A stretch of DNA of 64,000 nucleotides. Source: an uncultured virus (IMG/VR IMGVR_UViG_3300037071_001584). Taxonomy: Duplodnaviria > Heunggongvirae > Uroviricota > Caudoviricetes > Crassvirales. The translations under genes were made by a program, and so were the position numbers. The first letter of the stretch is position 1; each line of letters begins with the position of its first letter. Shown piece by piece: positions 2,690 through 44,158 of this stretch. Location of the stretch: IMG/VR virus record IMGVR_UViG_3300037071_001584, positions 1 to 64,000 of that record; one strand, 5' to 3'. Below the pieces are notes generated by a model, which was not told where the DNA came from, searched no databases, and saw nothing but the letters and a program-made list of their open reading frames with translations.

Positions 2690-2696
2690 AAAAAAC

Positions 2697-18743: not shown

Positions 18744-21700
18744 CTACTCTAATATCGTGTATAATTGATAATAATCTTTATCTAACTGAGACCATATTGG
18801 CACAAGTCTTTTAGTTGCTTTAACTAATTCATTCTTGTGTTTAGCGTCTTCATCTAAATATGAAAAGAAATTTTCATCATCCTCTGGGAAGAAGTTAATT
18901 GGAGTTACAACTTGTTGTATAAAGTCTAAACCTGTTTGTATTAATTTAATACCTGCAACAGGATTTGTTAAAATCTTAGCTGTCTCTCTAGGATCTCTAA
19001 ATTGAGATAATTCAGACTCTAATCTTCTAAGTTGATATACTAAGAACCATAATTCATCATCATCAGGGGCTGCTGCTCCTGCAATTAATGCTCCAATAGC
19101 TGGTAAAATTACAGATGTTAACATTATCTCAAGAGTTGCTTTCTTTAAATTAGCCTTCTCGTGGTCTGATAATGAGTTATATACATCTTTCATATACATC
19201 AATTGCATAGACTTCATTGATGGAACAACTCCATTTACGAAATATCTAGCTAAAGATGTGTAAATACCTTCAGTATATTCTTTCTTAGCAGAACTATAGT
19301 TTAATTCATCTTCAGTTAAGTCTTCTCTACTTTTAAGTGATGTAGATATACCTGTATATCTGTAAGCAAGAGCGCCTAAGAAGAAGTTTTTAAACATCAT
19401 CACTAGTTTACCTGAGATAGTTTTAGACAATTCATTCTTAAAGTTATTATCATAAACACCATACAAGTCAAATACTTTGCTCTTAATCAAAAGATTTATA
19501 TGAGTTTTACCTCCTTTAGCATATTCAGTAGTAAGATTGTGTTTGGTAAATTTAACTTTATCGTCCATTACTAACTTACCTTTGTTGTCCATCTTAAGCA
19601 TATCTAATAATGAAGAAGCTTTAGATTCATCTACAACTTTACCATTCTTATCTATAAATTTATTGTCAGAATTCATCACTTTAAGAGAGTCTAGTACGGC
19701 CATAGTAAGTATAGAGTTCATCATGTGCTCTCCAACTTCGTTTATACCATTCATATTCTTTCTAGAAGCTAACTTCTTTGCCAATGTATTTCTAAGATAT
19801 TCTTGTGTAGCAGGATCAAATCCTCCAAATACATCATACATTTCTAAAGTTTGATTTACAAAAGATGTTTTAACTGGATTACTTAAGTCAGACAATGTGT
19901 TAGGAAGTTCAGTTCCATAAAGTTTCTCAGCTTTAAGTAAATTCTTAGGACTAATAACGTCTCCTCCAAATGACTCTATAAACAATTGAGTGAATCCATT
20001 GAATAAGTTAGCAGTTCCTGATGCTACGTTTAGAGACATAGCAATACTTGCAGTAGCTCCATTTACGTAAGATACAATCTTATTTCCATCTAAAGGACCT
20101 AATCTTCCTCCATGTTCATGAAATACATCATATATCATCCTGTCCATTAAACCTTTTATTCTCTTATATTCATTAGTAAATTCACCTGGAATAGTTACAA
20201 CTGGCTGATTCTTGTTCCAAATATTCATTAAAGGAAGTCCAGTTTTAGTAGAAGTTTGAAAATACCTTTTACTTTTAGATACATCTGCCAACATAATAGC
20301 ATTAGTTTCGACCTTACTTTTCTCTCTAAAGCTAATAACATTGAAATATTCTTTTCTCAGCATTGTAGCTACGTCTAAAGATTGAGTTTTTGGATCTATA
20401 TCACCTCTATAATGAACTTTAACACCGCGAACAGACTCACCTGTTTTGTTATCTATAGCTTCACCATATCCAACATCATCTGGTTTAATCTCAGTAGCAT
20501 CTGTCCACTTTTGTTTAACTAAGCCTTTAAAGTCTTTCTCTACACCTCTTTCGAAATCAGATTTAGTTATAGATGGAAACTTATAGAAACTTACTTGGCC
20601 TGTCTTTCTAACAAGACTCCTACTTCCGCCTGTAGTTGTGTGACCTAATTTGGCTAAAGAAACTGCTTCTTTAAGCATTTCAGCACTAGCTCCAGTTGGT
20701 TTAGTATTTCTATATTTGTCTTTAGGATACCATTTAAGACCATGTTCATCAGATTGATCTCTAACTGTATGCTCTTTCATCCAGGCTTTAGTCTTCTGAT
20801 ACAATGCTTTGTATTCATCATTCTTCATGAAATCTTTAGCCATTACAGCTCCTTCTGCTTTAAGTTTATCCTTCAATTCACTAAGCTCTAATTCCATAGG
20901 TTTGTATTCTTCTAAATAGATATCTCTAAATTTTACACTATAAATACCTTTAAAGAAGTAATTACCATCTTTGTCTTGCTCATATATATCTTTATATAAC
21001 TCAGACGGAGCAAGGTTACCTTTTTCTTTAACTAAATCATTAAAAACATTTTTAAGAGCTAAATCATAATCTTTGTACAAATCTATAATAGTATCTCTTG
21101 CTGCACTAATCATATTAGTGATTATTTGTATAAGTTTACTGTTAGTATTTAAAGGGTCTTCAAAGTTCTTTTTAAATGAACTTATGTCGAATGCTGGATT
21201 GTATACAATTTTCTCTGCAGCTTTAATTAAATCTTCTTCAAATAAATCTTTATCTCTAGTAGTCAACATTCTAGATGCATATTCAATTCTAGATTCACCA
21301 GTTATTTTCTTATCTACATATTCTTTGTAAAGTCTATTTCTGTGATCTGTCTCTACTTGTGTATTAAACTTTGGATTAGCAAGAAATTTAACAGCTTGTT
21401 CGTTTTTTATAGCGTGAAACTGAGATTTAAGTGATTTACTTTCACCTGCAGCATAAGATATAATCTTTCTTATAGAATTAAAATCTTCAACTTCCTCTTC
21501 AGTTAAGTCTTTTTTAAGGACAGAGGCTCCAACAAGTTTACTTATATCATCAATAAGATCATATGCGGCTAGATACTCTTCATAACTATTTATAGTCTTA
21601 AGTAGATCTTCGTCTCTATAGTCTTTTGTTTTCTTATGAAGTCTTTCTAAACCTTTTGTAACTTGAATAACAGTTTTGTTTAATGTATTAGCATAACCTA

Positions 21701-22880
21701 AAATAACTTTAACTTTTTGAGTCTCAGACATTTTGTCCATCTCTTTAATTAAAGCATCTATATTCTTCAAGTGATCTTTTTTGTCTTTCCTTGATATAGG
21801 TTTTTTTGTCTTAGCAGTTCTAGCTCTAGCTTGAGCAATTCTATCTTTAGTTTCTTTTACAAGCTCATCAAGTTTGTTTTCAAAACTAGTCATCTCTGGT
21901 TTAACAAATTCAAGCTCTTTAGCAAACACACCTTTATATTGAGTCTCTTCATTTTCATCCTGAACATTTTGTTCATTGAAGTCCATTATCGTGTTGAATA
22001 AGGTTGTATATTCACTATTTAGTGGTATATTGAAAAATCTTCTTATTGCGTTAATGAATTGATTCCACAATCCTTCAGATTCAGATTTAACTTGATCTCT
22101 AAATTCAGGATTAGAATAAAACTCAGCAACAAATTCAAATTCATTTTTAAATCCATATTCCTCTGCTAAATCACTATCTTTGTATTTCTTCATAAACTTG
22201 TCAACAACTTCAACAAGTTCTTTCTCTGCAAGAGTTCTATTCTTAGGATCTTTAGCTAAAGCATCAGCAGTAATACTATGAACAACTTCATGAAGAAAAG
22301 CTACAACAACATCTTTCTCACTAAGACCTTTAATTCTCTCTGAAGAAACTTGAATTTTCTTAGATACTGGGTCATATTGCATAACTGCAGAAGTAGATAT
22401 CATGACTTCTTCATCAACTAATTCAACTTTTGCTTTCGATCCACCCATAATACGTGCCGCTCTAGTAGCTAAATCTTGCGCGTAAGGCGTTAAATCAGAA
22501 ATTCCAGTACTTATATTAGATAAAATATTATCGACGCTTAAATCGCCTTTAAATAGGTTTTCAGTAAATACTTCAACTTCAGGATCATATGAAATTTCTT
22601 CATCAAGAGTATTTGGAGCATTTTCATCAACTAAATCATGAAAATTTACTTCATCTGACAATCCTATCTCACTAATTGGTTCTGTTAATTTTTGTTCAGG
22701 TTTTGCATTTTCTTTAACAACTGATGCAGTATGTAGTTCGTCTACTGTAGGAAACTTTTCAAGTCCATTTACTTCTTGCCACAAAGATATCTTAGCAGCA
22801 GCAATTAGGGGACTAACCCCTAACTCGCTAGCCAAATCAATAACAGCATGACTCTTATGATTAACACAATGTATTGCCAT
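18744..22880 (-). CDS. Giant virion/ejection protein with zincin-like metallopeptidase motif
   Basis: 1378 aa, FLHEVVH...EFVAE, C-terminal hydrophobic helix, position downstream of vRNAP as in crAss-like phages. Confidence 0.75.
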   Translation of the reverse strand: MAIHCVNHKSHAVIDLASELGVSPLIAAAKISLWQEVNGLEKFPTVDELHTASVVKENAKPEQKLTEPISEIGLSDEVNFHDLVDENAPNTLDEEISYDPEVEVFTENLFKGDLSVDNILSNISTGISDLTPYAQDLATRAARIMGGSKAKVELVDEEVMISTSAVMQYDPVSKKIQVSSERIKGLSEKDVVVAFLHEVVHSITADALAKDPKNRTLAEKELVEVVDKFMKKYKDSDLAEEYGFKNEFEFVAEFYSNPEFRDQVKSESEGLWNQFINAIRRFFNIPLNSEYTTLFNTIMDFNEQNVQDENEETQYKGVFAKELEFVKPEMTSFENKLDELVKETKDRIAQARARTAKTKKPISRKDKKDHLKNIDALIKEMDKMSETQKVKVILGYANTLNKTVIQVTKGLERLHKKTKDYRDEDLLKTINSYEEYLAAYDLIDDISKLVGASVLKKDLTEEEVEDFNSIRKIISYAAGESKSLKSQFHAIKNEQAVKFLANPKFNTQVETDHRNRLYKEYVDKKITGESRIEYASRMLTTRDKDLFEEDLIKAAEKIVYNPAFDISSFKKNFEDPLNTNSKLIQIITNMISAARDTIIDLYKDYDLALKNVFNDLVKEKGNLAPSELYKDIYEQDKDGNYFFKGIYSVKFRDIYLEEYKPMELELSELKDKLKAEGAVMAKDFMKNDEYKALYQKTKAWMKEHTVRDQSDEHGLKWYPKDKYRNTKPTGASAEMLKEAVSLAKLGHTTTGGSRSLVRKTGQVSFYKFPSITKSDFERGVEKDFKGLVKQKWTDATEIKPDDVGYGEAIDNKTGESVRGVKVHYRGDIDPKTQSLDVATMLRKEYFNVISFREKSKVETNAIMLADVSKSKRYFQTSTKTGLPLMNIWNKNQPVVTIPGEFTNEYKRIKGLMDRMIYDVFHEHGGRLGPLDGNKIVSYVNGATASIAMSLNVASGTANLFNGFTQLFIESFGGDVISPKNLLKAEKLYGTELPNTLSDLSNPVKTSFVNQTLEMYDVFGGFDPATQEYLRNTLAKKLASRKNMNGINEVGEHMMNSILTMAVLDSLKVMNSDNKFIDKNGKVVDESKASSLLDMLKMDNKGKLVMDDKVKFTKHNLTTEYAKGGKTHINLLIKSKVFDLYGVYDNNFKNELSKTISGKLVMMFKNFFLGALAYRYTGISTSLKSREDLTEDELNYSSAKKEYTEGIYTSLARYFVNGVVPSMKSMQLMYMKDVYNSLSDHEKANLKKATLEIMLTSVILPAIGALIAGAAAPDDDELWFLVYQLRRLESELSQFRDPRETAKILTNPVAGIKLIQTGLDFIQQVVTPINFFPEDDENFFSYLDEDAKHKNELVKATKRLVPIWSQLDKDYYQLYTILE

Positions 22881-22886
22881 ATATTT

Positions 22887-23249
22887 TTATTTTAAAAATT
22901 TTAATTTATATAGCGTACTATATATTAATTCTAATATGTCATCAATTATTTGTTGTAGATATCCGCAGTCACTTAAAGACTCTCTAAAGGATTTAAAAGA
23001 CTCAATAAATCCTTCTAAATAAGAAATTGGACTAATGCTTTCAGAAATAGAAAACGACTTATAGCCTTTTATAATTCCATATTCTCCTTGGTAAGACTCA
23101 ATGAATCTATCTCTAAGATCTACAATATCTCTATATAATCCATCTAAAGCTTTATGCTCTGCAAAACTAGATGTTTGCAAGTGAGCAATATGTGCATTTA
23201 CTTCTATTGCAAATAGGTTAGACACAAACTCTTGTACTTTATTTTCCAT
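22887..23249 (-). CDS. Ferritin/Dps-like four-helix protein
   Basis: HIAHLQT, AEHKAL, DRFIESYQG, YKLKFL. Confidence 0.7.
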   Translation of the reverse strand: MENKVQEFVSNLFAIEVNAHIAHLQTSSFAEHKALDGLYRDIVDLRDRFIESYQGEYGIIKGYKSFSISESISPISYLEGFIESFKSFRESLSDCGYLQQIIDDILELIYSTLYKLKFLK

Positions 23250-26200
23250 AACATTCTATTAATTTTTCTTTTTCATCGTCACTTAACGCCATGAATGACT
23301 CCTTAGTCATAGTAGGATCTGCTTGTTGGAAAGCCTTAGAATGCTTATTCCATGAATCTTCAATAAACTTATCATAATCTTGTTCAGTAGTCTCTTCTCC
23401 AGTTAAATTCAATGCTCTTGAGGCATTTCCTTCAATAGTCTCAGCTTTGTTACTAATTCCAATTACAGTAGTTTTAGCTCTAGTTAAAGCCGTATAAATA
23501 CTTCTAGATTTAGATTTTGCTGATAAAGGACCAACACTATTGATGTCTTGGATATCTACTATAACACTATCATATGTAGAACCTTGAGATTTATGTGAAG
23601 TTATAGCATAAGCATAATCTATGTTAGCAAAAGACTTTTTAAGTCCCCATGCTTGTGCATACATTTGCTTTCTTAATGCTCCAGGAGGCATTTGTTTAGC
23701 CTTAGCGAACATCTCAGCTACTCTTTCATTAAACTCAACTTTAGATTCATCTGCAAGTACTGGAAATGACATATCAGTATTAGTTCCATCACCACGCTCT
23801 ACAGTAACTGCATAAGCTTGAAAACCATTATATGTAGTCTTTCTAACACCTTTTATAGAGAATTCATCACTATTAGATACCTTAGTTCTAGAATCAACAT
23901 CAAAGTTGTCTTGGAACATTATAATATCATTCTCAATTAATTGAGGCACATCTTCTCCGAATACAGCTTTTCTAATATCATTATTGTAAGCAGTTCTTGT
24001 AGCGTTTCTATATGTAACAACTTTGATTACATTAGGGTTTTGCTCAAGTATACCTCTTTTAAATGAGTCTACTACATCTTCAAATATATGACCAAATGAT
24101 CTTACAAATACTAAATTACCTTTAGGAGATAATGTATCTTTCATAACTCCATCTGGAACAGGATCTTGTTGAGAAGTTTCTAACTCAGAGTTATCCCAAT
24201 AATAATCTGCAAATGGAAGTATAGGAGACTCTTCTCCTTGACGAACACGTTCAGTTAGGCTAGCTTTATTCTCAGAATCAAATACAGGACTAATGCTATC
24301 TAAATCAGTTTTAGACCATCCATGATAATAAGGATTTTTAAGATCTCTAATAGGAGGCAATTGACCTCTATCTCCCAAGAACACTAATTTAGCAGATCTT
24401 CTTTTCATCTCCATCATCATCTCAATAGCCTCTTCATTAACCATAGAAGCTTCATCTATAATAATAATATCATGTTTAGTAATCTTAGCATCTTCAGAAA
24501 ATGAATCAGTAAACTCACCTGTCTCAACATCCATAGTCTTGCCTAATATACCAGCTATACTTCCACTTTCAATCTTCCCAGGATATCTATTGTCAAGCTT
24601 CTCTGATAAAACTAACTTAGCTTTATGAGATAATGCTGCAATTAAAATCTTTTTACCTGCATTTACAAATGGGGCAATAGCTTCTTGTACAATAGTAGTT
24701 TTACCAGTACCAGCCTTACCTTCAATTACAAGTATCTCTCCTGGATTACCATTCTTAACAAACTCTTGAATTACGTTAATTGCATTCTCTTGTTGTTCAT
24801 TTGCAGGTTTAAATACTTGCTTATTATTAATGCTGTCATAAGGAGGGTTTGTTATAATATCAACTTTAGGTGTTGCAAGAATACCATGTTCAGCTAAACT
24901 AAGTATGTTCCTTCTTTCAGAAGATTCATCTACCCATTTCATTATCTTATTATTAGTAAGAGAAATAATTGTATTATTAGGAGTAACAACATAATCACTA
25001 CCTAAGTAAGTAACAAATTTACCTTTCTCTTTTCTACTTGTAAGTTTAGATTTAGATACAGACAGCTTAGCTAAAGCACCTTCCATTCCTGGATTATATA
25101 TTTGAACAGTTCCTATTGCATTAAATTGAGTAACTATATATGGAACTCCATTATAATCTACAAATCTACCAATTTCTAAAGGATATTCGCTAATAGGTTC
25201 AATTTTCTTGATATTAGTACCAGCTTCTCTTTTAACTGCTTCATATTCTTCTTCGGTTAACTCATGAGGAACAACATCTGCATCAGCTGCGTCCATTATA
25301 GCCTCTTCAGTTCTTTTATACAAATCTCTAATGGCTTGTTTTGCAGCTTCTTCTTTTTTAGTTCCTAAATACTCTTGTCTAGGAGTCCATTTATTAGTAG
25401 ATTTATCTAAAGTATTATAATTTTCTATATCTCTAGTTCCAACACCTGCAAAATCCTTAGTCAAAATAGGTGGTTTATGTAGTTCAAAATACTTACCATT
25501 CCATCTATTCCACTTTTCAGTTTTAGTGTCCCATACGTAAACAGGTTTTCTTAACTTAATACCTAATTGAACTGCAGTATTAGTTCCTCCATGTACAGCT
25601 GTTGAATTGAATTTATCATTAATATCTAAAGGAGCTACAGCAAATACAGCATCAGAATTAGCTACTTGATAGTAATTTCTAACTTGAAGATTGCCTTGAA
25701 CTGTATTTGGGAATTTTTTACCAAGCAATCTCTCAACTTCAATCCTAGCAGTTTCCATTTGTTCATCTGTTAATACAGTTGCTTCTACTTTGCTATTTTT
25801 AAGTTTTTGAGATAGTCCAGTATTTTTGCCCTCTCTATAATGTTTATGTTCAGTAACACCAAATTCTCTACCAATAATATCAAAGTATGTATCTGCACCA
25901 TAAGCTCCACCACTATGATTAGTTATTTCAGACATAGAAGATACTTCTAGTACAGGTTCTTTTAATACTATAGAATCTTTTATATCTTCAACTTTACGAT
26001 ATACTGGAGCAAGTTCTTTAACTTCAACAGGTTTCCCTGGCTCTTCAATTCTTTCATCAACCTCTGATAATTCAAAGTTAGGATTAAAGTTTTCTCTTTC
26101 AGTTACAACCATATTCATTAAATAGTCAATTTCTTCTTTATTACTTAATTCTGGTCTCTTAATGAATCTATCTCCATATTCTATAACAACACTTCCTTTA

Positions 26201-29200
26201 AGTTTCTTACCAAGAGGATTTACTCTTGTATAAATTCCTTTGTTTTCAGAATCATATCCTTCAAGTTTATAAATATGATTATCATCTAATTGAACATAGA
26301 ATCTAGACTTACCAGATTCTTTCTTAATGAAGCCAGATTCTTTATCTCTAGTAACCATTTCATTCTCGAATACTAAAGGAACATATTTGTACTTATGTGT
26401 ATTGTTTAAATAGAATTTATCTATGAAATCTTCTTGATTTGCTCTAGAAAATTTAGGAACAAAGTAATTTACACCTTCATTTATCATATATTCATGAGGA
26501 ATATATGTATAGAACTGATTAGAGTTCATTCTAAATCCTGAAGTAAGAAATGAATACTTTATTAAATCTTCAGCAAATTGAACATGGTCTAATCTTAAAT
26601 CTCTCCATGAATCAGTAAACTTCTCTTCAAATGATGTAGATTTCTTTCTATTATTCAAAGATATGATCTTAACTTTACCATCTCTTTTAATTTGAAGCTC
26701 ATCTAAGATCATATACTTACCTCTATATTCCTTTCTAAATTCATCAAATTTAGCAGGAAGATTATTAAGTAAATCTCTAGACTCTTCTTCAGATAAGTTA
26801 AATGGATTAAAGTTAGACATTACATAAGTGTAGTAGTTTTTCTCTAAATCTGTAGTAAGCTCTTCATTTGTAGCAGGCATACTATATAAATCATCAGAAA
26901 TTGTATTAAACATTTTCTGAACTTTCTCCTGTCCTTGAGGAAATAAACTTGGATTAGATTGGACTATTCTCATCATCTCTTTAAGAGATTCAAAGTAATG
27001 TCCTAATGTAGTATTGTCAAACTTAGATTGAAGTCCATTTAAAGCCTTGTAATTATCATTCTCTTCTTTACCTAAAATATATTGTTTTAAGTTAAAAATA
27101 GAATATAATGAGTTAATATTTTTACCCATACCATTAGTGTCTAATTTAGAGACATCAACATTCTCTTTCATAGTTTTACTAACTTCTTGCAATTCTAAGA
27201 ACTTTTTATATACAGCTAATTGAAATGGACCATCTGGCTTGCCAGTAATTTGTTCTCTAAAGAATTGTAAGTCATATTCTTTACTAGTTATATTAACAGT
27301 TTCTTCCTTAAAGATTTCATTATGAGCATCTCTAATCTCATCCAATATTGGATTTATTTCATCAAATGTAGCTTTCTTTCCAAGAACTTTTTTAATCTCA
27401 CTAACTCCTTTATCTAGTGCCTTATCATTAAGAATCCCATCTGCTTTCATTTTTTGATAAACAACTCCATAAGGAAATCCTTTTTCATCTTGAAGCTTGA
27501 TAAGATTTTCTAATACAAGATTTCTTTTAAATTTAGTCTTAGTGTCTCCACTATTCTTAGATGTAATTGATTCAAGACTAGATTGATACTGAACATATTG
27601 CTTTATTATTGGCTGAGCCATAAATGCAGTAACATACAAAGGATGTGTGCCTGATCTTAACAATAAGTTTCCTATATTAGTTGTAGATGTAGTCCAGTTT
27701 CCTCTAGTAATATAAGGGTCTTTGGCTATATCCACAAATGCATTAAGAATTGCAGTTAATGAATCGCCTATCTTAACTTTACTAATTTCGTTAGCAAGTT
27801 CTTCAGATCCATTCATTGCTTTAAGATAATACTCTAAATCAGATGGACTTAATTGTTCAGAAAACTCTTTATCAAATACTGTCTCTCTAATATTATTTCT
27901 AACTTCACTATGTCCCCAACCAATGTAGTATTTATTTAGACTTAAATTACCTATTCTATTAATATCAACCAAAGCGTTAGCTTCTTGACCAACACCTGCT
28001 TTACCCCCAATAAATTCATATCTAAGTTTGATATCACTAACAGCGTCAAAGTGAAACATAGGTTTACTTGTATCAGCCTTCACAAGGTCTTTTATCTCGT
28101 TCTCAATGAACTTAATATCTACGGGCTTCATAACATCCTTAATTACTTTTGGATTCGTTAAAACAGCCTTATATAGCTCCACAAGCCTATTCTGAACAGC
28201 TTCCTTAGATTGTTCTTCATTGGACAACTCTGGATTGTATTCAGTGTACTTAAGTTTGCCTTCTGATAATGTATAGTTAGACATCATAATGAACATCTTA
28301 TCAATATCAAAATCCGATCCAGTTTTAGTTGTAATACCTGTGTAAGCTACAATTGTATCGCCATTCTCTTCAGGAAGGATTCCTACTATTTGTAATGCAT
28401 CATTAGATGAAAGTCCTTGATTTGGAATACGATATCCTACTATATTACTTAAAATTCTATCATCTATAATCCCTTCAACTTTATTACCATCTTCATCTGT
28501 ATATCCAAATAATTCTTCAGCTTTATATTTTTTGTAGTCAGGAATATATTTAGCAATAAACGATCCTGATATTAATATACCTCCTGGTCTAATCTTAGTT
28601 TTACCAGTATCTTCATCTACATATATTGTAGGTTCAAATGTGGTATCTCCATTGTTTAATACAGGACTCCATATAATACCTTTGTCTCCATTTTCTTTAG
28701 ATATGCCAAAGTTAGACATCTGAATGAATGCTCCACCATTAGTTTTAATCTTAATCAGCCTATCATTCATAATAGAAGAATAGATGCTTATGATCTTGTC
28801 TATAGACTGTGGCATTCCATATAAAGTAACTTGTTTATTAAGAGCATCAATTATATTTTTAGATCCACCTCTTTTTTCAAGCTCTTTAACTAAAGCGTTA
28901 TATAATCCTTTTACATTGTTTATCTTACCACTCTTACCTATACTAAACTCTTTGTTAACTTCTTCAAGTCCTTTACCTATAAGGCCTTTAACTATGTCAG
29001 AAATTCCATCTGAAATCTCCTTTCCAGTTACATCTTTTCCATCTAAATAGAAACCTTTTTGTTTTGCATTAAACTTTAGACCTGCAAATATATTCTTTTG
29101 AATTTGAGATCCTACATCAGTTTGTTTAAATGTTTTAATAGGAAGATCTTGTTGCAATTTCCATCCATAATTAGACAGACTTACCTTATTAAAAGTAACA

Positions 29201-32200: not shown

Positions 32201-32379
32201 TCTTTATATCCTTCAACCCAATCTCCAAATTCTTCTACAAATGCAGATTGTTCACCAGGAACAACATCAAAATAAGCATAAGCTTCCTCAGCTTTAAACT
32301 CATTACTATAGATATGCTCTAATGTTTTAATCAATTTCGATTCAGAACCATTTGTTCTTGTGATCTTTTTACACGCCAT
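23239..32379 (-). CDS. Virion RNA polymerase (single-chain two-barrel, crAss-like) fused to SLOG and SF1 helicase domains
   Basis: YRIPNQ and GSDFDIDK (DFDID at 28300-28314); SGGAYGAD; GKAGTGKT, DEASM, GDRGQLPP, HKSQGST, YTALTRA. Confidence 0.9.
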   Translation of the reverse strand: MACKKITRTNGSESKLIKTLEHIYSNEFKAEEAYAYFDVVPGEQSAFVEEFGDWVEGYKEGDPSFSKRVYDNGEPKLFYSEESKKYYFISKNDEQIPYPIEKRGLRSVFDYKQMDRIVSRLALNYFKQSPNINFNNIEFEEGEKLPRLRDHVESEIKKKIASLQTEGPKGKFMSRSLGKSLDYLDEYVDRIDNFYKQISIKRVDNDEASDLQTISEEGKDPVFNKASFEQDSKNSLSNNIKLRLSLLENNEERDPVWNEPTFVPFNDVYSTLLNNISNQVALPGEDMFELQRTQIKKIAYKKEYLNQLIGFFNDKRFTESDKNQFAQAFNLHKQNFLVSEIRTKVVDTETSNVEKTFKLDVKEVSESGSKASIVESEWGNNFRLSFLKEDNSFKEGAKANLEGIISELDSLLNLVSKDMSEEEFTKYSNEYVALTRELGVELTKNGFINYLDDNGSKSFNIEHQKGKLTKSVQRTSYVLKKSLNYFKKAHKDFNNPFETQSIFKELAKAESFFLSEGSDASIWTSGKNKWLFSYPSYISTRILQWKKNPELLRNWYDQSAYNKGSELAKYLLALDINPKDEFGNKKVLKDGLKEERRKVSKERLDSLNLGVFNTFQEKDGDYVSASDISYNDYFNDNLNKVLSNSYVRTTTPADKTTDLQIRTGLFVDTTTIRNDEVSINDRTLRLFFNYFNSEFNRMKEANAEVDVAGENPENLRIHYHYKAGSDIYSKNGNAFNSQYFPELSFSEKSDNSAVNEIKSKLYNSDGSIKHTADLSTNPELRSEIEAYINDMLQGGIQETVFSLINQEVVEINKDGYSNKRIDKDVFKKYLENNFGDTTNAVTSAASDFYINGLIQNIEYSKLFTGDVAFYKNMVDYKKRIPGTYTDGLQLRLKEGEETFTAATINSIEIESPVFDKLVEMLGEDGAKPYKKINSADAQAWITPQRWRFLLERLGKWDNKTHNAVYEKMTSDTHPIYTKDELKIMAQPLKGVYFYMNGKTPTYLKYSQAVLTRGLVKNTGLEKLFNGMQEQGVDELITIDGFKVGSPTPTTIHNAKGEIDNVTFNKVSLSNYGWKLQQDLPIKTFKQTDVGSQIQKNIFAGLKFNAKQKGFYLDGKDVTGKEISDGISDIVKGLIGKGLEEVNKEFSIGKSGKINNVKGLYNALVKELEKRGGSKNIIDALNKQVTLYGMPQSIDKIISIYSSIMNDRLIKIKTNGGAFIQMSNFGISKENGDKGIIWSPVLNNGDTTFEPTIYVDEDTGKTKIRPGGILISGSFIAKYIPDYKKYKAEELFGYTDEDGNKVEGIIDDRILSNIVGYRIPNQGLSSNDALQIVGILPEENGDTIVAYTGITTKTGSDFDIDKMFIMMSNYTLSEGKLKYTEYNPELSNEEQSKEAVQNRLVELYKAVLTNPKVIKDVMKPVDIKFIENEIKDLVKADTSKPMFHFDAVSDIKLRYEFIGGKAGVGQEANALVDINRIGNLSLNKYYIGWGHSEVRNNIRETVFDKEFSEQLSPSDLEYYLKAMNGSEELANEISKVKIGDSLTAILNAFVDIAKDPYITRGNWTTSTTNIGNLLLRSGTHPLYVTAFMAQPIIKQYVQYQSSLESITSKNSGDTKTKFKRNLVLENLIKLQDEKGFPYGVVYQKMKADGILNDKALDKGVSEIKKVLGKKATFDEINPILDEIRDAHNEIFKEETVNITSKEYDLQFFREQITGKPDGPFQLAVYKKFLELQEVSKTMKENVDVSKLDTNGMGKNINSLYSIFNLKQYILGKEENDNYKALNGLQSKFDNTTLGHYFESLKEMMRIVQSNPSLFPQGQEKVQKMFNTISDDLYSMPATNEELTTDLEKNYYTYVMSNFNPFNLSEEESRDLLNNLPAKFDEFRKEYRGKYMILDELQIKRDGKVKIISLNNRKKSTSFEEKFTDSWRDLRLDHVQFAEDLIKYSFLTSGFRMNSNQFYTYIPHEYMINEGVNYFVPKFSRANQEDFIDKFYLNNTHKYKYVPLVFENEMVTRDKESGFIKKESGKSRFYVQLDDNHIYKLEGYDSENKGIYTRVNPLGKKLKGSVVIEYGDRFIKRPELSNKEEIDYLMNMVVTERENFNPNFELSEVDERIEEPGKPVEVKELAPVYRKVEDIKDSIVLKEPVLEVSSMSEITNHSGGAYGADTYFDIIGREFGVTEHKHYREGKNTGLSQKLKNSKVEATVLTDEQMETARIEVERLLGKKFPNTVQGNLQVRNYYQVANSDAVFAVAPLDINDKFNSTAVHGGTNTAVQLGIKLRKPVYVWDTKTEKWNRWNGKYFELHKPPILTKDFAGVGTRDIENYNTLDKSTNKWTPRQEYLGTKKEEAAKQAIRDLYKRTEEAIMDAADADVVPHELTEEEYEAVKREAGTNIKKIEPISEYPLEIGRFVDYNGVPYIVTQFNAIGTVQIYNPGMEGALAKLSVSKSKLTSRKEKGKFVTYLGSDYVVTPNNTIISLTNNKIMKWVDESSERRNILSLAEHGILATPKVDIITNPPYDSINNKQVFKPANEQQENAINVIQEFVKNGNPGEILVIEGKAGTGKTTIVQEAIAPFVNAGKKILIAALSHKAKLVLSEKLDNRYPGKIESGSIAGILGKTMDVETGEFTDSFSEDAKITKHDIIIIDEASMVNEEAIEMMMEMKRRSAKLVFLGDRGQLPPIRDLKNPYYHGWSKTDLDSISPVFDSENKASLTERVRQGEESPILPFADYYWDNSELETSQQDPVPDGVMKDTLSPKGNLVFVRSFGHIFEDVVDSFKRGILEQNPNVIKVVTYRNATRTAYNNDIRKAVFGEDVPQLIENDIIMFQDNFDVDSRTKVSNSDEFSIKGVRKTTYNGFQAYAVTVERGDGTNTDMSFPVLADESKVEFNERVAEMFAKAKQMPPGALRKQMYAQAWGLKKSFANIDYAYAITSHKSQGSTYDSVIVDIQDINSVGPLSAKSKSRSIYTALTRAKTTVIGISNKAETIEGNASRALNLTGEETTEQDYDKFIEDSWNKHSKAFQQADPTMTKESFMALSDDEKEKLIECYGK

Positions 32380-32391
32380 TTTTTATAGTTT

Positions 32392-32427
32392 ATGTAAATA
32401 TACAATTTTTTTATTTAATATGCAAAT
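32392..32427 (-). promoter_or_regulatory. Bipartite promoter-like motif upstream of the vRNAP gene
   Basis: ATTTGCATAT-N14-GTATATTTACAT; identical boxes and spacing at 51888-51923. Confidence 0.65.
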
Positions 32428-35400
32428 TAAAATCCACATATTTGTTTTATATCGTCAATAGACTTGTTATTTTTCTTAGCAACATCTATTAGCTCATTAA
32501 AAGTCTTATTAAGATTCTCTGAAGAGAAAGATTCATCAGAAGTGTATTTATCTAAAACGTTGAATTTGTCAGCAAGACTAAATATAACTTCTGCCTTAGT
32601 ATCATCATCAACTTTATTAAATAAAATTTCTAATTCATTGACATTAGTTTTAACATCTTGTTTACTATTAGGAGCTTCTTCTTTCTTTTTCTTGGCATTA
32701 AGCATATCTTGAAATAATTGACTAGTTCTAGCAACTTTACCTTCTTCATTAGACTCTACAGTAATCTCCTTCTTAACTTCCTCTTTAACTTTCTTAGCAA
32801 CAGGTTTGCTATTTTTAACGTCCTGATTAAGATATATATTACTATATCCTTGAAATGTAGGTTGATTAACTACAGCATTTGTTGTCAATAGTGGCATATT
32901 CTTATTTAGAAGGTATTCTACATATGCTGGGTTATTGAAAACAAACTGACCTGGAGCATCTCTAGTTATAAGAATGTTATGTCTCTTATATTGAACATAT
33001 CTCATTATAGCCTCTCTAGCTTCAGGAGAAGCTAACTCTTCTTTAGTTATAGACAATTTATGTTCAAATCCAGAACCATCTAATAAATGCATTGCTAATG
33101 AACCTAGAATTAAATTACCGTCAGGCATTAAATTAAAACCAGTTTTAGGATTTAAACTTTTATGATATATGATTAAGTCTAATAACCTAGAAAGACTTTC
33201 ATTCCTTTCATCACCTTTAGCAGTTCTTTTAACAAATCCTATCTCACCTTTCAAAGCTTCTTGTAATGAAGCACTAAGATCTGGATCTATTTCATCTAAT
33301 TGTTTAAAGAATTGTCCTACAGTTAAAGCTTGAAAACTAGTCTTCTTGCCTATAGACTGAGATACTTGACTTAAAGATTTAACAATCTCATATACAGCTT
33401 CAGCTTTCTCTTCATTTATTCTAGACACATTTAGCTTTAAAGGGAATGGAGTTCCATTGTTTTGATTGACCATAAGGAAAACTTCTCCCTTAGACTTTAT
33501 ACCAATATTAGTTTGCATAATATGATCTTTGTCTAATGTACTAACTAAGTTTCCTTCCCAGTTAACATAACCAGTATTCTTTTGAAAATATTCAATCTTC
33601 TGAGCTTTAGTCATACCATCAAATACCTGTAAATCAAGTACACTGTTCATTGGAACAGGACCATCCTCTTCTCTCTGAGTTATTTTAAGGACTCCAGGGA
33701 ACTGATCTATTACGTTTGATGATATACCATCAAAACCTTTATTTAATACAGCCTGAGCGATTATATTGCGTCTGAGAGGCATAGTTTGCTTCTCTAGTAT
33801 CTCTTGAGAATCAGGATGAGCTTGATTGTCTTCAGTTTTGTTTTCTATAAAAGAATGTACTTTTTTCTCTTTACCATCTTTCTTGTATGTAAACGTAACT
33901 CTAATAGGTAATTCATCTTCAAGTAACTTAATGTCGCTTGCTGTGGCAATACCAGAAACTAAATTATTAAATGCAGCTTCGACTTCTTTAGTAGTTGTCT
34001 TAATTACTTTACCAACATTATTAGGATCTGCTATAGAACTTACAAATGAGAAAGTTACTCCGTCACCAGATTTATCTCTAGGAGTTCTTTCATATTCAAC
34101 GAAAGATTCTAAATTAGGATATAAAGCTTTGCCAGTTTTTCTTTTTGTACTAATAACTTTAGCTCCAGCTTGAGGAGAATCTAAATCATCGTCAATTTCT
34201 TTCTCAGTTTTGTTAGCTCCAGTTTCAACTTCTTCATCTTCAACTTCATCTTCTCTAGTAGGTAATGATTCAGATTGATAATCTCCTTCTTCATCTTCAG
34301 TTACAGGAGGAACTACGATTTCTACAACTTCTTCAGGTTCGTCTATCTTTTGAGTTTCTTCTAGTTCTGTTTGAATGTTTTTCTCTACCTCTTTTTCTAC
34401 AGCCTCTTCTTCGTTTAATTGATCTTCTTTTTCTTTAATCTTCTGAGCTATAACAGGATTCTTGACTAGAGGATTAACCTTCCTATCTTTAAGATTCTGT
34501 ATATCTTCCCAAAACTCTCGTTCATTATTTAATGAATTAAGAGCTTGCTTATTAATTACAGCCTTATTTATCCTATTAAGTTTATCTTTAGTGTCTTTTA
34601 AATCAGATTTAGCTTCTTGTAAGTTTTTAGATGTTCTAAGAAACTCATCTCTAACATACTTATAATCTTCCATATTAGTACCAGGCTTAATCTTGCCTAA
34701 CATGTCTGCATATGTCTCAAGTATACCTTTAAGTACAGTTCTATATCCATCTAATGAATCTACAGCTTCTTCAAGTTCTTCAACTCTACGTTCTGTACCT
34801 AATTGATGTGTTAACAAAACTCCTAAGTCTTGACGATGATCTTTAAATAGATCTGAACTTTTATTTAAGTAATCTACAATATCCTGAATGGTTTCTAATT
34901 CAAGATTATTCACTTGATTATACCTGTCAAAGATATAGTTAATTTCTTTATTTAGTTGTTTAAGTTCACCTTCAAGGTCATTGATAGCTTTTTCATACCT
35001 AGAGATGTCTTTATTAACCTCTTCTAGCTGGTTTTCAGCCTCTCTAATGAGTTGTTTTAATATTTTGGCATTACGACCTCTAGGAGATTTATTCTCTTCT
35101 TGTAGAGCCTTAATTAAAGCCTTCTGAATTGATATAAGATTGTTTAACTCGTCTTGATGTTTAGATAAAGTCTCTTGAACTTCTTCAGCATGACTATAAT
35201 ATTCGTCTAATACATCTTCTAAAGTATCTTTAAAAGCTTCTTGCTCTTCAATTCTTCCTGACAATGTATCTTCTATATCATCTATTAAGTCATTAATTGC
35301 AGATGAAGTCATATTCAATGCTTTCAACTTATCTAAATTTGACTTTAAATTAGAAGTAGAATCATCATTTGATATACTTTTAGAAACTTGACTAACAACA

Positions 35401-37866
35401 TGTTCTTCTGTTGCTCTATCATAATCTTCATTAGATACATGAGCAGGAAGCATCAACATATTTAACTCATCTTTTGATTGAGCAGAATCAACATTGTCTA
35501 TAAACTCTTGAGCCTTAGCAACAGCTTCAGGTGAAGATGCATTTTCTTCAGCTTTCTCATGACCTATGAACTTATTAAAAGCTTCTTGAATATTGTCTCC
35601 ACCTTTCCAAATATCAGCAATATCTTTCTTATGTTTTTCAACTTCTAATTTTTTAGCTTGATAATCTTTATCTATATTTTTAATTAATTCATTTGATTCT
35701 AAGGCTTCTTTTGTTTTAGTAGCTCTTTCTTCTAATTTTTCATCAGTTACTAATCCTGGTTTCATTTTACTAGTAGGGAATTCAGAAGTAGGATCATATA
35801 ATTCATCTACTCCAGCTTCATCATAAGCTTTTCTTCTTTTATCTTCTAGTTTTTTTAAGTCATTTTCAGCGTTTCTAAGGGCATATTTTGAGTTAAGGTA
35901 ACTTGCACTAAGTCTTTCAAAGAATTGTTCCTTATGCGCCTCCGTACCATCTCTATTGTCAAGTCTAATGACGTCTCTACTAAAGTCTTGAAACCTTTCT
36001 TTTTGAGACTGTAACCATTTAGCGCTTTCTAATGTTTCTTTAACAAAGTTTTTAGAGTTATCTTTAGAGTCAGACTTAGCATCTCTTTCTACAATTTCAT
36101 TGAATTGAGCATCTTGATTAAGCTTTTGTTCTAACGCTTTTAAGCCAGCCTCTCCATTATGAATAGCTGGCATTATTAAATTAAATATTGCTTGTCTCTT
36201 AATTTGATCAACAACTTCTGTATTGCCAGATTGAACAGCTAAATCGAAAAGTGCAGATTGTCTCTCTGTAAAGTTTAAATTCTTGGCAACTCTTCTTACT
36301 TCTTTGTTGTCTAAAATTCTTTCAGTAGTTTCTTCACCATTTTCATCTAACTTGTATTCAAAAGAACCGTCTTCTTTCTTTTTGTATATGTTATTTTCAA
36401 ATGTAGTGTTGAAATTTAATATCTCACTATCTATGTTATCAAGAATTGCATTAGTTCTTTTTCTATTTTTAACATCTTCTTTTCTTCCTTGATAAGACAT
36501 CATTGGTCCTCCAAGAACTCCTCCTAAGAATATAGCTTTCTGTCCTTCTACTGTAGATAAAGTATTGGCATACTCTTTAGTAAACTCTCCAATTAAGTCA
36601 AATGAATTAGCATCTTTCTTTCCCAATTCACCTCTCATTGCTTTGTTTACAAACATATTCTCTACAGTGGTTTGAGAACCTTCTTCCCACAAACCTTCAG
36701 ATACTCCTGCTTCTCCCCATCTTAGAGCAGCTTTACCAGCTCTTTTTGCAATACCTTTAATTCCTACTTCAGCAGTTTTTTCAAACTTCTCTGCAGCTTT
36801 ACCCCATATGGCCTTATGCATTATAGCATTAGGCCCTAACAAGATAGCGACGTTAGATACAAATGTGTCTCGCATTGCTAAAGCACGTTGAGCGCTAAAA
36901 GCTTTTTCTGCCTCTTCACCTATATTTTGAGATAATTCATTATATTGGTCTATGCTTATTTGACCTGATCTTCTTTGTTGATCAAGCTCTGTCATTCTTT
37001 TTTTATTGTATGTTTCTACAAATTGTGGCTTTTTAGCATCTAAATCATCACCAACACCTTTAGCCTCAGCTCCTGCTTCTAATAATGTATTTCCTGTTAC
37101 AGATAATGCTGTGTCTATATTTCTACCAGTCATTCCCATAAGCTTAGCAACTTGTGTGCCTTCTTCAGCTTTACCTGCCATATTAGTTAACCATCCTAAT
37201 TTCTTAGAATTAGCTGCAGATTCAACAAGTTTACTTCCTAAGCCTAACTTTTCAAATGCCATTCCAGGGGCCATCATTCCTACAAGAAATCCAAGTCCAT
37301 CAGCACCATCAGTTGCCCAAAAAGCTGTGGAAGATATATTGTCCCAAAGGTTACCTTCTTTCATTGCTTTAGACGCATAAACAGGAAGTAAATCTTCATT
37401 TACATTCTTGTTTAATTTATCTACACTTTTAACCCATTCATTATTAAATATAGTGTCAAAACCTTCACCATCTTCAGCAAAAGGAGCTGCAATAGCACCA
37501 GCAATTACTCCAGGAATTTTAGCAACCTCAGCTGCAGCTTTAGCTACTGCTCTTGTAGGAAGTTTACCTAATTGCTCCCATCCAGATTGGTTCTCAGCTC
37601 GTATATCTTCATATGGATCTTCAGCGTTTAAATTAGCGAATTGATCAAGTAATGGATTTGTGCCAGGAGTTACTTCATCTTGATTAGACGAATTAATATT
37701 AACACTATGTCTTTCTGTATCAAAAGCATTAGAAGTAGCTGTTCTTAGTTTGCCTTTTTGAGATGACCATTGTTTATACGCATTTGTATTAGCAAGACTA
37801 TCTAAAAACTTATCATCATAACTACTTGCTGTCTTCTTTCCTTTAGGCGGATCTATTTCACTCATC
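32427..37866 (-). CDS. Giant virion/ejection protein with coiled coils and N-terminal hydrophobic helices
   Basis: About 1812 aa from the likely start MSEIDPPK (ORF track starts at 37895), Gly/Ala-rich hydrophobic segments, long coiled-coil region. Confidence 0.75.
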
Positions 37867-39846
37867 TTATTTCTTTTTAGCTTGATTCTTGGCAATTCGT
37901 ATCATCAATGCTTCTCTTGCATCTGAATCTACTTCTGCTCTTTGAACTAATTCTTTAGTTGGAATATTAGCGTATTGATTTTCTATTAATGCATTAGAAA
38001 CTTCTGATCCTTGAAAATTACCAGTAACTTCATTTCTACCTCCCTTATCTTTCCAGAAATCAGCTATAGCTCCAGATAAAGATTTATATCCAGCTGCTGA
38101 TCCTGCATCAAAAGAGTTAGAGAATTTTTTAAGTCTAAATGTTACAGTAACAGGTTTCTCTGCTCCTCCATATTGATCGTCTTCTCCTTGAATTCCTTTT
38201 AAATCATAATCACTAGCACCTTTTCCAGTGTTAAATGTCATTGTAATCTCAGGAGTTTTACTATCTCCATATGTTTTAATATTGTTTATTTTAAATGATT
38301 TTGGATCACCATTTTTCAACAACTCTTGTATGTTAGAAACATCTTTACTATTAACATCTTTTCTATTACCACTAGGAGTTGAAATACTTGTTAAATCTAA
38401 TACGTTTCCTAAACTAGGAATACCTCTTAATGTATTATAAACACCTTCATTATGTAAATTCCAAATACTTTCCTCTTTAGGATTAGTTGGCATATATGAA
38501 TAGTTATGTCTAGTTGAAGAAGATTCTTTCCAAGCAGCATTTTTTATTTCAGTATATTGACCATCTATTTGCCTAAGATCATTTCTTAATTTAGCTGTTT
38601 TAATTCTTGAACTCTTACCATTAAAGGTTGGAGCATTATATTCTATTTCAGCTAAATAATCATTATCACTCATTCCAGGTTTTCTTGGAACTTTGAATTC
38701 TTCTCCAAGTTTTTTAGCTTCTTCTTGTATTTTCTTTCTCTTCATATTAAGAGCAACATATTCTTTATTCTGATTTAATTTAGAATCTGCATTTCTTCTT
38801 AATTCATTTAAGTCTTCTAATTTAGCGGCATCTGCTGCACTAAGAGCTCCTTTTGATCCAGAAAGTCTTTTGATTTCAGTAAGAGCATCTGTGTAAGTTT
38901 TGTTGTCTACAGCATTACTTTGTAATGTACTATCATTACTTATAATGGTTCCACTTCCAAAACCTTCTTCTGCTTTAGGATTTAAGGACTCTGGTATGCT
39001 AAAATTTTCTCCTCTAGTGTCTTCGCTTCCTGTAGATACCATAGAACCAAATTTACCTTTAGCTTGATTTTGTAAGTTTTGTAAATCTAGTCCAGCATGT
39101 TCTGCCCACTTACGTCCTTCTCCTTCTTTTTCAAACCATCTGGCATTAAATGCCTTAATAGCGTCATTAACTTGAGGAACATTAGTTGAAGTTGTAAGAT
39201 TACCTTTTCTATCAGCAAACATCATTTTACCTGTAGTAGGGTCTTGGAACACTCTATACCCGCTATTAGCTAATGCTGTAGAGTTATGTCCTAAGATAGA
39301 CTTAGCTTCCAATATATCTTTATCAAAGTCTTGCTTAGCAGGTGCTCCGTAAGCTCCTATATTAGATATTTTGTTATTACTATCAAATCCTGTATAGTTA
39401 TCTTTAGCATATTTAGCCCAATTCTCTTCAGCTCTAGCTTTACCTATTCCAGATTTATCTACAGCATCTTTAATATAAGCTTCTTTTTCTTTTGCATAAA
39501 TTTCTTTAGCTGTATTAATTCTACCAATCTCTCCAGTAGGAGAAACTAAATCTTGTATTTCTCTATTTAGTCCTAAGGTCTTGCCTATCATATCAGGATT
39601 AACTCCTTGAGAAGCAAGTTCTGCAGCAGTGGCGTCCATTTTACCTTCAATACCTTTCTTTAACTCAAGAGCTCTTTGATAATGAACGTCTAACGGATCT
39701 ACCTTAGCTAATCCACTACGTATTGCTTCTTGCTGAGCTATTACAGCATCATGCTGCTTCCGCTTCATGGCAGGAAGCATGGCTATTTCTTCCAAAGTTA
39801 GAGGAGTGTATGCGCTAGGCGATAAATTTGTGTAACGGTTAGCCAT
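37867..39846 (-). CDS. Virion cargo/ejection protein
   Basis: 659 aa, no Cys, located between the cargo gene and the giant-protein genes. Confidence 0.6.
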   Translation of the reverse strand: MANRYTNLSPSAYTPLTLEEIAMLPAMKRKQHDAVIAQQEAIRSGLAKVDPLDVHYQRALELKKGIEGKMDATAAELASQGVNPDMIGKTLGLNREIQDLVSPTGEIGRINTAKEIYAKEKEAYIKDAVDKSGIGKARAEENWAKYAKDNYTGFDSNNKISNIGAYGAPAKQDFDKDILEAKSILGHNSTALANSGYRVFQDPTTGKMMFADRKGNLTTSTNVPQVNDAIKAFNARWFEKEGEGRKWAEHAGLDLQNLQNQAKGKFGSMVSTGSEDTRGENFSIPESLNPKAEEGFGSGTIISNDSTLQSNAVDNKTYTDALTEIKRLSGSKGALSAADAAKLEDLNELRRNADSKLNQNKEYVALNMKRKKIQEEAKKLGEEFKVPRKPGMSDNDYLAEIEYNAPTFNGKSSRIKTAKLRNDLRQIDGQYTEIKNAAWKESSSTRHNYSYMPTNPKEESIWNLHNEGVYNTLRGIPSLGNVLDLTSISTPSGNRKDVNSKDVSNIQELLKNGDPKSFKINNIKTYGDSKTPEITMTFNTGKGASDYDLKGIQGEDDQYGGAEKPVTVTFRLKKFSNSFDAGSAAGYKSLSGAIADFWKDKGGRNEVTGNFQGSEVSNALIENQYANIPTKELVQRAEVDSDAREALMIRIAKNQAKKK

Positions 39847-44142: not shown

Positions 44143-44158
44143 ATTAATATATTTATAC

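Follow-up and report, generated by a model that had tools for sequence, protein, structure and literature searches.

Cysteines at the facing ends of three giant crassvirus cargo proteins suggest a head-to-tail disulfide chain around the virion RNA polymerase

Results

Three giant cargo proteins with cysteines only at their facing ends

The window analysed here, i.e. the whole stretch of 64,000 nucleotides, is part of a 78,775-base IMG/VR record (IMGVR_UViG_3300037071_001584) from an uncultured virus of the Crassvirales. It contains an RNA-polymerase cargo block with three giant proteins, which we call A (the upstream giant protein), V (the virion RNA polymerase, vRNAP) and C (the downstream giant protein). 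These three, like all other features of the window described below, are encoded on the minus strand.

Protein A, the first giant protein of the block, has 1812 residues in the database gene call (32427..37865, from an ATG at 37865), and its open reading frame (ORF) stays open back to a TTG at 37895 (32427-37895, 1822 residues). Its homologs include phi14:2 gp67 and crAss001 gp47. A hidden Markov model (HMM) of the A family built here matched phi14:2 g067 (1.1e-177); this HMM alone did not match crAss001 gp47, gp058 of IAS virus or the fused proteins described below, and the first two were linked to the A profile by hhalign (98.1%). The virion RNA polymerase V (23239..32379, 3046 residues) has a core homologous to phi14:2 gp66: its residues 12-1381 aligned to residues 29-1400 of PDB chain 6vr4_A, which is phi14:2 gp66, with an E value of 1.3e-229, and tblastn with phi14:2 g066 gave 36.5% over V residues 850-1600. 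Its catalytic DFDID motif (S1355-D1356-F-D1358-I-D1360-K-M; 28300..28314) comprises D1356, D1358 and D1360, all three of which are invariant in 21 aligned homologs; a DFDxD motif has been described for the gp66 family (bioRxiv 10.1101/2020.03.07.982082). Protein C (18744..22880, 1378 residues) is the last giant protein and a homolog of phi14:2 gp65 and crAss001 gp49. The C-family HMM built here matched crAss001 gp49 (1.4e-63), and phi14:2 g065 (locus L035) matched C by blastp. A Pfam search of C gave no match. The protein has an HExxH motif (H197, E198 and H201; 22278..22292), a zincin-like signature that is at least 90% conserved among 63 aligned C homologs, and a zincin-like domain has been stated for the gp65 orthologs in the same preprint.

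Together A, V and C comprise 6,236 residues, of which just four are cysteines. The sole cysteine of A is the third residue from its C-terminus (..KQICGF; codon 32436..32438). V has Cys3 (MACK; 32371..32373), an invariant column of homolog alignment A1, and Cys3043, the fourth residue from its C-terminus (..IECYGK; 23251..23253). The sole cysteine of C is Cys5 (MAIHC; 22866..22868). All four thus lie at most 5 residues from a facing terminus and none is internal. With uniform placement, the chance of four cysteines each being at most 5 residues from one of the four facing termini is about (20/6236)^4, i.e. about 1e-10. The cysteine content of the 40 other ORFs listed for the window ranges from 0 to 4.7%.

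This arrangement had been reported in a sequence-only reading of the window, and its codon positions and counts were all found to be correct on recount, including the absence of internal cysteines from the giant proteins. The same reading held that the cysteines face the next giant protein in gene order, which stands, but it had overlooked an ORF of 120 residues (22887..23249; DUF5856, Pfam PF19174 at E 1.2e-21) that sits between V and C, so that these two genes are not direct neighbours. The start of this ORF overlaps the stop of V, its single cysteine (Cys95) is internal, and it is probably outside the chain proposed below. A gap of 360-540 bases is found at the same V/C place in several loci of close relatives (L003, L006, L009, L011, L026 and L031) and could hold a DUF5856-like ORF.

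The terminal cysteines are conserved in homologs, loci and annotated genomes

The best 120 of 402 V homologs (33-100% identity, 1818-3396 residues) were inspected for cysteines. One was present within the last 7 residues in 120/120 and within the first 8 residues in 116/120, at position 3 in 103 of these 116. The four others start at reference positions 16, 177, 617 and 968 and are N-truncated calls. Internal cysteines were absent from 107 of the 120 homologs, and the remaining 13 had one. The C-terminal cysteine was retained whichever domain precedes it, be it a helicase, an AlkB-like domain or another.

The accessory domains behind the V core do vary. In the window (23443-25940) they are a Dda-like SF1 helicase fused at the C-terminus (V residues 2519-2979, 23443..24825; phrog_325 at 2.2e-77, Pfam AAA_30, AAA_19 and UvrD_C_2) and a DprA-like domain, the latter also identified in the C-terminal part by Pfam and PHROG matches. 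Other V relatives, whose lengths range from 2033 to 3396 residues, carry the Pfam domains PF13532, PF08719, PF25176 and PF12694. The short cysteine-bearing tail always comes after the last accessory domain.

A and C showed the polarity expected of the two ends of the series. Among 51 A homologs, a cysteine was present within the last 3 residues in 47 and within the first 10 residues in none; one of the four exceptions, P0161, ends at reference position 1568 of 1812, and the three others are considered in the Discussion. Among 79 C homologs, 78 had a cysteine at position 3-6 and none had one within the last 10 residues. The only exception, P0231, starts at reference position 166.

Used as a single query, the window V sequence retrieved one identical contig only, and a megablast search of 12 kb against the phage collection gave no match. 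An alignment-based scan of viral contigs yielded 74 IMG/VR loci, whose ORFs were labelled by blastp; the counts that follow are not de-duplicated, and eight loci share a V core identical to that of another. Both cysteines were present in all 58 separate, complete and unsplit V proteins, and each of the six V proteins cut by a contig end had the cysteine of the surviving end. C had its N-terminal cysteine in 67/67 cases and a C-terminal one in 0/67. Separate A proteins had a cysteine within the last 10 residues in 61 of 65 cases and within the first 10 in 0/65. Taken as 193 unique ORFs (350,874 residues), A, V and C contain 271 cysteines (0.077%), of which 247 are at most 10 residues from a terminus and 24 are internal. 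For comparison, the cysteine content of 302 unique neighbouring ORFs of 150-999 residues is 0.717%, and 6.6% and 11.6% of these ORFs have a cysteine within their first and last 10 residues, respectively.

Twenty-three annotated genomes were also opened: 5 Steigviridae, 11 Suoliviridae, 6 Intestiviridae and Flavobacterium phage FpV4. In 23/23, each boundary between separate block proteins has a cysteine at most 10 residues from both facing ends, and no such cysteine is found at the outer ends of the block. Judged from these sequences, the terminal-cysteine rule is deeply conserved in crAss-like phages.

Fusion of neighbouring genes removes the facing pair

In the fused forms, the two cysteines that are lost are those that would face each other across the fused junction, and the other pair is retained. 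The sequence-only reading had predicted that terminal pairs would co-vary across relatives and disappear at fused junctions, and this outcome was obtained in every data set examined.

V-C fusions of 3516-3525 residues were found in three loci (L053, L056 and L071), with V at 15-2124 and C at 2201-3513 by blastp and a C-family HMM match at 8.5e-208. They have a single cysteine, near the N-terminus, and none internally, and the A protein upstream retains its C-terminal cysteine. A fourth locus (L075) has the same type of fusion, cut by the contig end. V and C are also fused in 6/6 Intestiviridae (p-crAssphage/Carjivirus communis, cr271_1, Rudgehvirus, cr3_1, cr8_1 and cr107_1). Here the upstream protein (1957-2749 residues) has a cysteine as its last or second-to-last residue, and the fused protein (4070-4620 residues) has Cys3 or Cys5 and no C-terminal cysteine. 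In p-crAssphage, the C-terminal part of gp44 matched the C profile by hhalign (99.5%), the C-family HMM alone giving no match, and the N-terminal part of gp45 matched the A profile (94.4%). In the p-crAssphage record (L089), a zincin-like region with HExxH at 1743, matched by hhalign (84%) to the N-terminal domain of the C family, lies at the C-terminal end of gp45, and the remainder of C follows the polymerase within gp44. The order of domains is thus changed, yet the sole protein boundary still has a cysteine pair.

In A-V fusions it is the other pair that is lost. The fused proteins of L058 (4208 residues) and L078 (3985 residues, N-end cut) have only a C-terminal cysteine and are followed by a C protein with Cys3. 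All 11 Suoliviridae are A-V fused (4272-5801 residues), with a cysteine in the last 5 residues, none at the N-terminus, and a following C with Cys3-5; the fused protein is cut by the record start in cr124_1 and interrupted in cr131_1. FpV4 gp32 (A-V, 4287 residues) has one cysteine, second from the end, and its neighbour gp33 has Cys3. In cr108_1, too, A and V are fused, with a C-terminal cysteine and a cysteine-headed C. The N-terminal parts of the fused proteins were matched to the A profile by hhalign, at 97.9% over 290 columns for Suoliviridae and at 91% over 156 columns for L058 and L078. In late genes of the Suoliviridae records L080, L083-L088 and L099, in-frame TAG codons are numerous (5 to 148 in each gene for which codons were counted), which fits stop-codon recoding; cr50_1, cr55_1 and cr118_1 have no in-frame TAG.

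A FastTree tree of the V core was built from 85 rows, leaving out eight duplicates and cr108_1, whose core is too short. With default filters the V-core HMM missed FpV4 and the Intestiviridae, which were found with --max. The tree needs 4 architecture changes. On this tree V and C became fused twice, once in Intestiviridae and once in the L053 clade, placed deep among three-gene forms, and A and V at least 2 times, in Suoliviridae with FpV4 and in L058/L078. Since cr108_1 belongs to the Steigviridae, of which the other four genomes opened are three-gene forms, it represents one more fusion event. FpV4 and several other rows are on long branches, so that the exact number of events is uncertain. 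The loss of the facing pair on fusion, with the other pair kept, fits pairwise ties between the tail of A and the head of V and between the tail of V and the head of C.

The pattern follows protein ends, not the DNA

We considered the possibility that the cysteine codons reflect a feature of the DNA at gene junctions, such as translational coupling or overlap with a ribosome-binding site. The A genes of crAss001 and IAS virus lie on the strand opposite to V and C, and yet the cysteine pattern persists (the IAS record has ambiguous bases, and its V is annotated as two overlapping pieces). The pattern therefore belongs to the proteins and not to the junction DNA. The opposite-strand A and the presence of other genes between V and C rule out such an artefact.

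Interrupted genes provided a negative control. In L014, L015, L018, L025, L041, cr108_1 and cr131_1, V is broken into two ORFs within the catalytic motif, between GSD and (F/Y)DxDK. The Rfam check, which covered L025 and cr108_1, identified a group I intron (RF00028, gathering score 50) in V of both: at 14007-14284 in L025 (85 bits) and at 19215-19533 in cr108_1 (L097; 80 bits). None of the pseudo-ends created by these breaks has a cysteine. That the breaks are real protein ends is ruled out, as all of them fall at the catalytic motif and an intron is present in L025 and cr108_1. The gap in V of cr131_1 (L099) contains an ORF of 242 residues, and annotated records list the V halves as separate proteins. 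A genuine split of V with a newly gained cysteine pair was not seen among the data examined.

Junction peptides and a model of the A-V complex

A and V have similar tails, with acidic residues at -6 and -5 from the cysteine, followed by a hydrophobic residue, Lys and Cys. Likewise, the heads of V and C both read M-[AS]-C followed by basic residues. The same kind of joint thus seems to be used twice. Towards its C-terminus, A has a variable linker and then a conserved C-terminal segment, the last residues of which are ..ICG[FLI].

A model of the complex between V 1-480 and A 1680-1812 scored 0.68, the best control reaching 0.00. The score mark was reached by 116/157 solved complexes and by 2/215 mismatched pairs, counts that serve only as a rough calibration for the A/V model, for which our own alignments were supplied. 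The runs agreed in at least 83% of contacts, with a predicted local distance difference test (pLDDT) of at least 62 for the partner. The confident interface lies between A residues 1754-1785 (32511..32606), which belong to the conserved C-terminal segment, and a surface within V residues 102-256 (31612..32076) formed by 102, 106-113, 167-179 and 253-256, given for the confident contacts as 102-113, 167-179 and 253-256. As the sole solved relative that was found is gp66 by itself, the model is unlikely to owe its score to a remembered complex. It supports binding of the A C-terminal segment to the N-terminal domain of V.

Other genes of the cargo block and of the virion module

The block starts with the muzzle protein (44301..48899, 1532 residues; Pfam crAss_MUZ at 4.5e-200), which has 6 internal cysteines. 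It is followed by a protein of 1038 residues in the cargo-1 position (40389..43505), one of 659 residues in the cargo-2 position (37867..39846), and then A, V and C, an order that is repeated in related loci. The 1038-residue protein matched Pfam crAss_CARG1 only weakly (E 2.9e-4, 21.3 bits, under the 27-bit cut-off). It was confirmed that these two cargo proteins are free of cysteine, as the sequence-only reading had stated, and homologs of the 659-residue protein in the loci are nearly all cysteine-free. That reading had missed the identity of two cysteine-rich ORFs between cargo genes, which are GIY-YIG/NUMOD3 homing endonuclease genes of 186 (39839-40399) and 221 residues (43495-44160). 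The 186-residue endonuclease begins MANRYC and the 659-residue protein encoded downstream begins MANRYT; insertion of the homing endonuclease may have copied the start of its target gene, to judge from this resemblance.

In some lineages the cargo-1-position protein has a single cysteine near one end. Among three Intestiviridae proteins (gp47 of L089, gp38 of L098 (cr107_1) and g49 of L093 (Rudgehvirus)) it is 2, 8 and 11 residues from the C-terminus. FpV4 (L091) gp30 has its sole cysteine at position 5, and the cr8_1 (L095) protein encoded at 1175-4723 has Cys5 plus four internal cysteines. The chain proposed below may extend to cargo-1 in such lineages, or cargo-1 proteins may dimerise.

Terminal cysteines are also found in the virion module of the window. 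The ORF at 57148-58128 begins MCAKV and has its sole cysteine at position 2, the ORF at 52919-53911 begins MALNC.. and has Cys5 plus a cysteine as last residue, the ORF at 51939-52901 ends with a cysteine, and the ORF at 58128-58529 starts with MVIEC. By analogy with the crAss001 tail, these residues may form structural disulfides.

Discussion

A proposed disulfide chain

We propose that A, V and C form a head-to-tail disulfide chain, A-S-S-V-S-S-C, a reading of the sequences to which we assign a probability of about 0.7. A, V and the zincin-bearing C would be packed in the capsid, and each boundary between separate proteins would be closed by one disulfide, from the cysteine in the last residues of the upstream protein to that in the first residues of the downstream one. 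Some 6,200 residues would run from N to C as a single pseudo-polyprotein, linear and without branches. The conserved segment before the C-terminal cysteine of A would bind the N-terminal domain of V non-covalently and thereby place both thiols next to each other. The near-lack of internal cysteines would prevent branches and loops, and would also avoid trapping by periplasmic thiol oxidases as the partly unfolded chain crosses the tail and the envelope. Once in the cytoplasm, a reducing environment, the chain would come apart at these links and release the polymerase. The timing of oxidation, the fixed stoichiometry, the ordered ejection and the reductive release are parts of the scheme that we infer, as is the nature of the tie, which would be a disulfide rather than another thiol-mediated bond. 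A disulfide is the simplest assumption, given the disulfides of crAss001 virions, the cysteine suppression linked to passage through the periplasm and the same geometry in phage A4 (see below).

A broader version of the proposal is more tentative, and we would put it slightly short of even odds: that tail-to-head cysteine coupling is general in Crassvirales and occurs in at least one unrelated lineage of podophages, that more than 6,000 residues are threaded through the tail as a single strand, that disulfide and gene fusion have been interchangeable in the course of evolution, and that reduction in the cytoplasm acts as the release switch.

Several points weigh against the chain. The result consists of a sequence pattern and a model. 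The cytoplasm in which the virions assemble is reducing, and many hosts are anaerobic. The model covers the A-V junction alone, and Cys1810 of A and Cys3 of V are absent from its confident contacts. Some A proteins depart from the rule. Among the homologs, P0141 and P0162 have no cysteine and a truncation cannot be demonstrated for them, and P0170 has its cysteine 21 residues from the end; among the loci, the cysteine is 32 residues from the end in L032 and 12 residues in L061 and L062, and the A ORF of L060 stops early and has none. The A-like part of fused proteins was detected by partial profile-profile matches only, over 156-290 columns, and hhalign gave no match between the N-terminal part of FpV4 gp32 and the A profile. 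A triple A-V-C fusion, which the rule predicts to lack terminal cysteines, was found neither in the 74 loci nor in the 23 annotated genomes. Internal cysteines, up to about 27 per protein, occur in proteins of Suoliviridae, Intestiviridae and IAS virus, so that freedom from cysteine for the purpose of threading is not universal. The sampled records do not extend to Crevaviridae. Finally, in the accessible text of the crAss001 paper (PMC10172136) the disulfides listed for the virions are those of the tail and portal vertex only; the word 'disulfide' is used there for tail and portal-vertex proteins only, and 'cysteine' has 0 occurrences.

Other explanations of the terminal cysteines

The thiols might pair non-specifically in a crowded capsid, giving mixed products such as A-A, C-C, A-V-V-C or circular V. 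The tails of A and V, and the heads of V and C, are indeed so alike that the peptide context hardly separates the two junctions. Docking was also modelled for the A-V junction alone. Yet random pairing would make the strict polarity superfluous, and this polarity is seen in the absence of N-terminal cysteines from A and of C-terminal ones from C both among the homologs (0/51 and 0/79) and in the loci (0/65 and 0/67). Furthermore, fusions are always A-V or V-C, in that order, and remove exactly the two cysteines of that junction, and the link described in A4 is specific, being set by a docked helix (PMC12002296). We therefore consider non-specific pairing improbable. Much the same low probability is given to the idea that the facing cysteines bridge a metal (Zn or Fe), or engage in other reversible thiol chemistry, instead of forming a disulfide. 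Thiol pairs can join metal sites, some C heads have a His beside the cysteine (e.g. MAIHCVNHKSH in the window), and the present data do not separate these chemistries. However, a metal is poorly held by two thiols alone, the His is not conserved (the heads MSCKDKQKF and MACPIKIKN have none), and the structural precedent is a disulfide. A single four-cysteine metal site joining all four termini is ruled out by the fused forms, which keep just two cysteines.

It is also conceivable, though we think a little less so, that each terminal cysteine is tied to another virion component, i.e. the portal, the inner wall of the capsid or other cargo. Many structural disulfides are present in crAss001 virions (PMC10172136), the window virion ORFs 57148-58128, 52919-53911 and 51939-52901 have terminal cysteines as well, and the Intestiviridae cargo-1-position protein has a single one near its C-terminus. 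This would leave unexplained why the cysteines lost on fusion always face each other and why the outer ends of the block are free of them, and it is also disfavoured by the model, which docks the C-terminal segment of A on V. Least probable of all, and a slim chance in our view, is that the cysteine near the zincin-like domain is a cysteine switch that keeps a protease latent until ejection, the other cysteines being incidental. The conserved HExxH of C is about 190 residues from Cys5, and that of p-crAssphage gp45, at 1743, is about 210 residues from the C-terminal cysteine of this protein. A switch would leave unexplained the A-V pair, near which there is no protease domain. Moreover, the V-C fusions of the L053 clade keep C from profile position 140 on, which should include the protease region, and have no cysteine near it. 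The disulfide chain A-S-S-V-S-S-C remains the reading that we prefer.

Significance

No phages are more abundant in the human gut than crassviruses. Their particles store, and deliver to the host, over 700 kDa of cargo protein, including the polymerase that starts the infection. The cargo was not resolved in the crAss001 atlas (PMC10172136), and a 2026 paper on N4 notes that crassvirus ejection proteins still need structures (PMC13434306). If it exists, the chain would explain 1:1:1 co-packaging, ordered exit through a narrow tail and the occurrence of the block as one, two or three genes. The sequence rule, i.e. a cysteine at each boundary between block proteins and none at the outer ends, offers a check on gene calls, introns and fusions in crAss-like genomes. 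A full-text literature search, with supplements and most subscription journals outside its scope, retrieved no paper on terminal cysteines or disulfides in the proteins of the crassvirus RNA-polymerase cargo block. Both 'cysteine' and 'disulfide' have 0 occurrences in the accessible text of the phi14:2 preprint, and the same holds for that of the 2026 N4 paper.

Comparison with known systems

The closest counterparts are those of cultured crassviruses. gp67, gp66 (PDB 6VR4) and gp65 of phi14:2, and gp47, gp50 and gp49 of crAss001, are the homologs of A, V and C, respectively, and show the same pattern. In phi14:2, the cysteine of gp67 is the last residue, gp66 has Cys3 and Cys2179 of its 2180 residues, and gp65 has Cys3. 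In crAss001, the cysteine of gp47 (Cys2339) is third from the end, gp50 has Cys5 and another (Cys2404) ninth from the end, and gp49 has Cys5. V of the window differs from these homologs in having DprA-like and helicase domains in addition. The annotation of phi14:2 g065-g067 is based on tandem mass spectrometry of virions, and crAss001 gp47, gp49 and gp50 were found in virions by mass spectrometry and assigned to the capsid cargo zone; that paper also reports inter-subunit disulfides in the virions, and its methods refer to samples both with and without reduction (PMC10172136). By analogy with these mass spectrometry data, V of the window would be a virion-packed protein that is delivered to the host.

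Schitoviridae such as N4 and DEV likewise have giant polymerases that are packed in virions and ejected, and in which cysteine is strongly suppressed, a feature that has been interpreted as an adaptation for crossing the periplasm (PMC11445570). The sequence-only reading had taken it as established that ejected proteins of the N4 type lack cysteine, and this is indeed in print in the same paper: in N4 gp50 and DEV gp71 cysteine is wholly absent, with a frequency of 0.00075% across gp71 homologs, whereas the window proteins have their four terminal cysteines. The Schitoviridae polymerase is a single polypeptide of about 3,400-3,500 residues, compared with three proteins here, and the fold of the N4 polymerase is unrelated to the crAss-like one (PMC13434306).

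Within crassviruses, the fused forms (A-V in Suoliviridae, V-C in Intestiviridae) share the domain order of the separate proteins, and their continuity is provided by a peptide bond. The three proteins have been described as fused in some phages, in a 'single huge polyprotein', and cleavage was supposed for the fused proteins (bioRxiv 10.1101/2020.03.07.982082). The cysteine rule points in the opposite direction: it suggests that separate proteins are joined and that covalent continuity is the selected state.

A structural precedent in an unrelated phage is provided by the cyanopodophage A4 (Anabaena phage A-4L, Saffermanviridae). In the virion, as determined by electron cryo-microscopy, Cys1715 of gp27 forms a disulfide with Cys5 of gp26, and the C-terminal helix of gp27 lies in a cleft of gp26; the authors suggest a chain reaction upon ejection (PNAS 2025, PMC12002296). 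Both gp27 and gp26 are large ejection proteins, encoded by adjacent genes and with one cysteine each. In the A-4L record, that of gp27 (1717 residues) is third from the end (..NPCQF), as in A, and that of gp26 (1114 residues) is Cys5 (MSKHC), as in C; gp29 has none. The head of gp26 (L100), MSKHC, is identical to that of a C-family protein of crassviruses (P0180), which may be a convergence on the head motif. A-4L gp27, gp26 and gp29 showed no homology to the crAss A, V-core and C profiles (E above 0.1 in hmmsearch, below 1% in hhalign), and the likeness, taken as an analogy, is one of mechanism and not of membership in a protein family. The two systems also differ in that A4 has one link and no polymerase, whereas the window would have two links in series around an RNA polymerase of 3046 residues. 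The gp27-gp26 pair forms a pentameric ring around the portal. Fusions are not the subject of any comparative claim in the accessible text of the A4 paper. An end-to-end disulfide between ejection proteins is thus known from A4, and the double link around an RNA polymerase that we propose here would be a new form of it.

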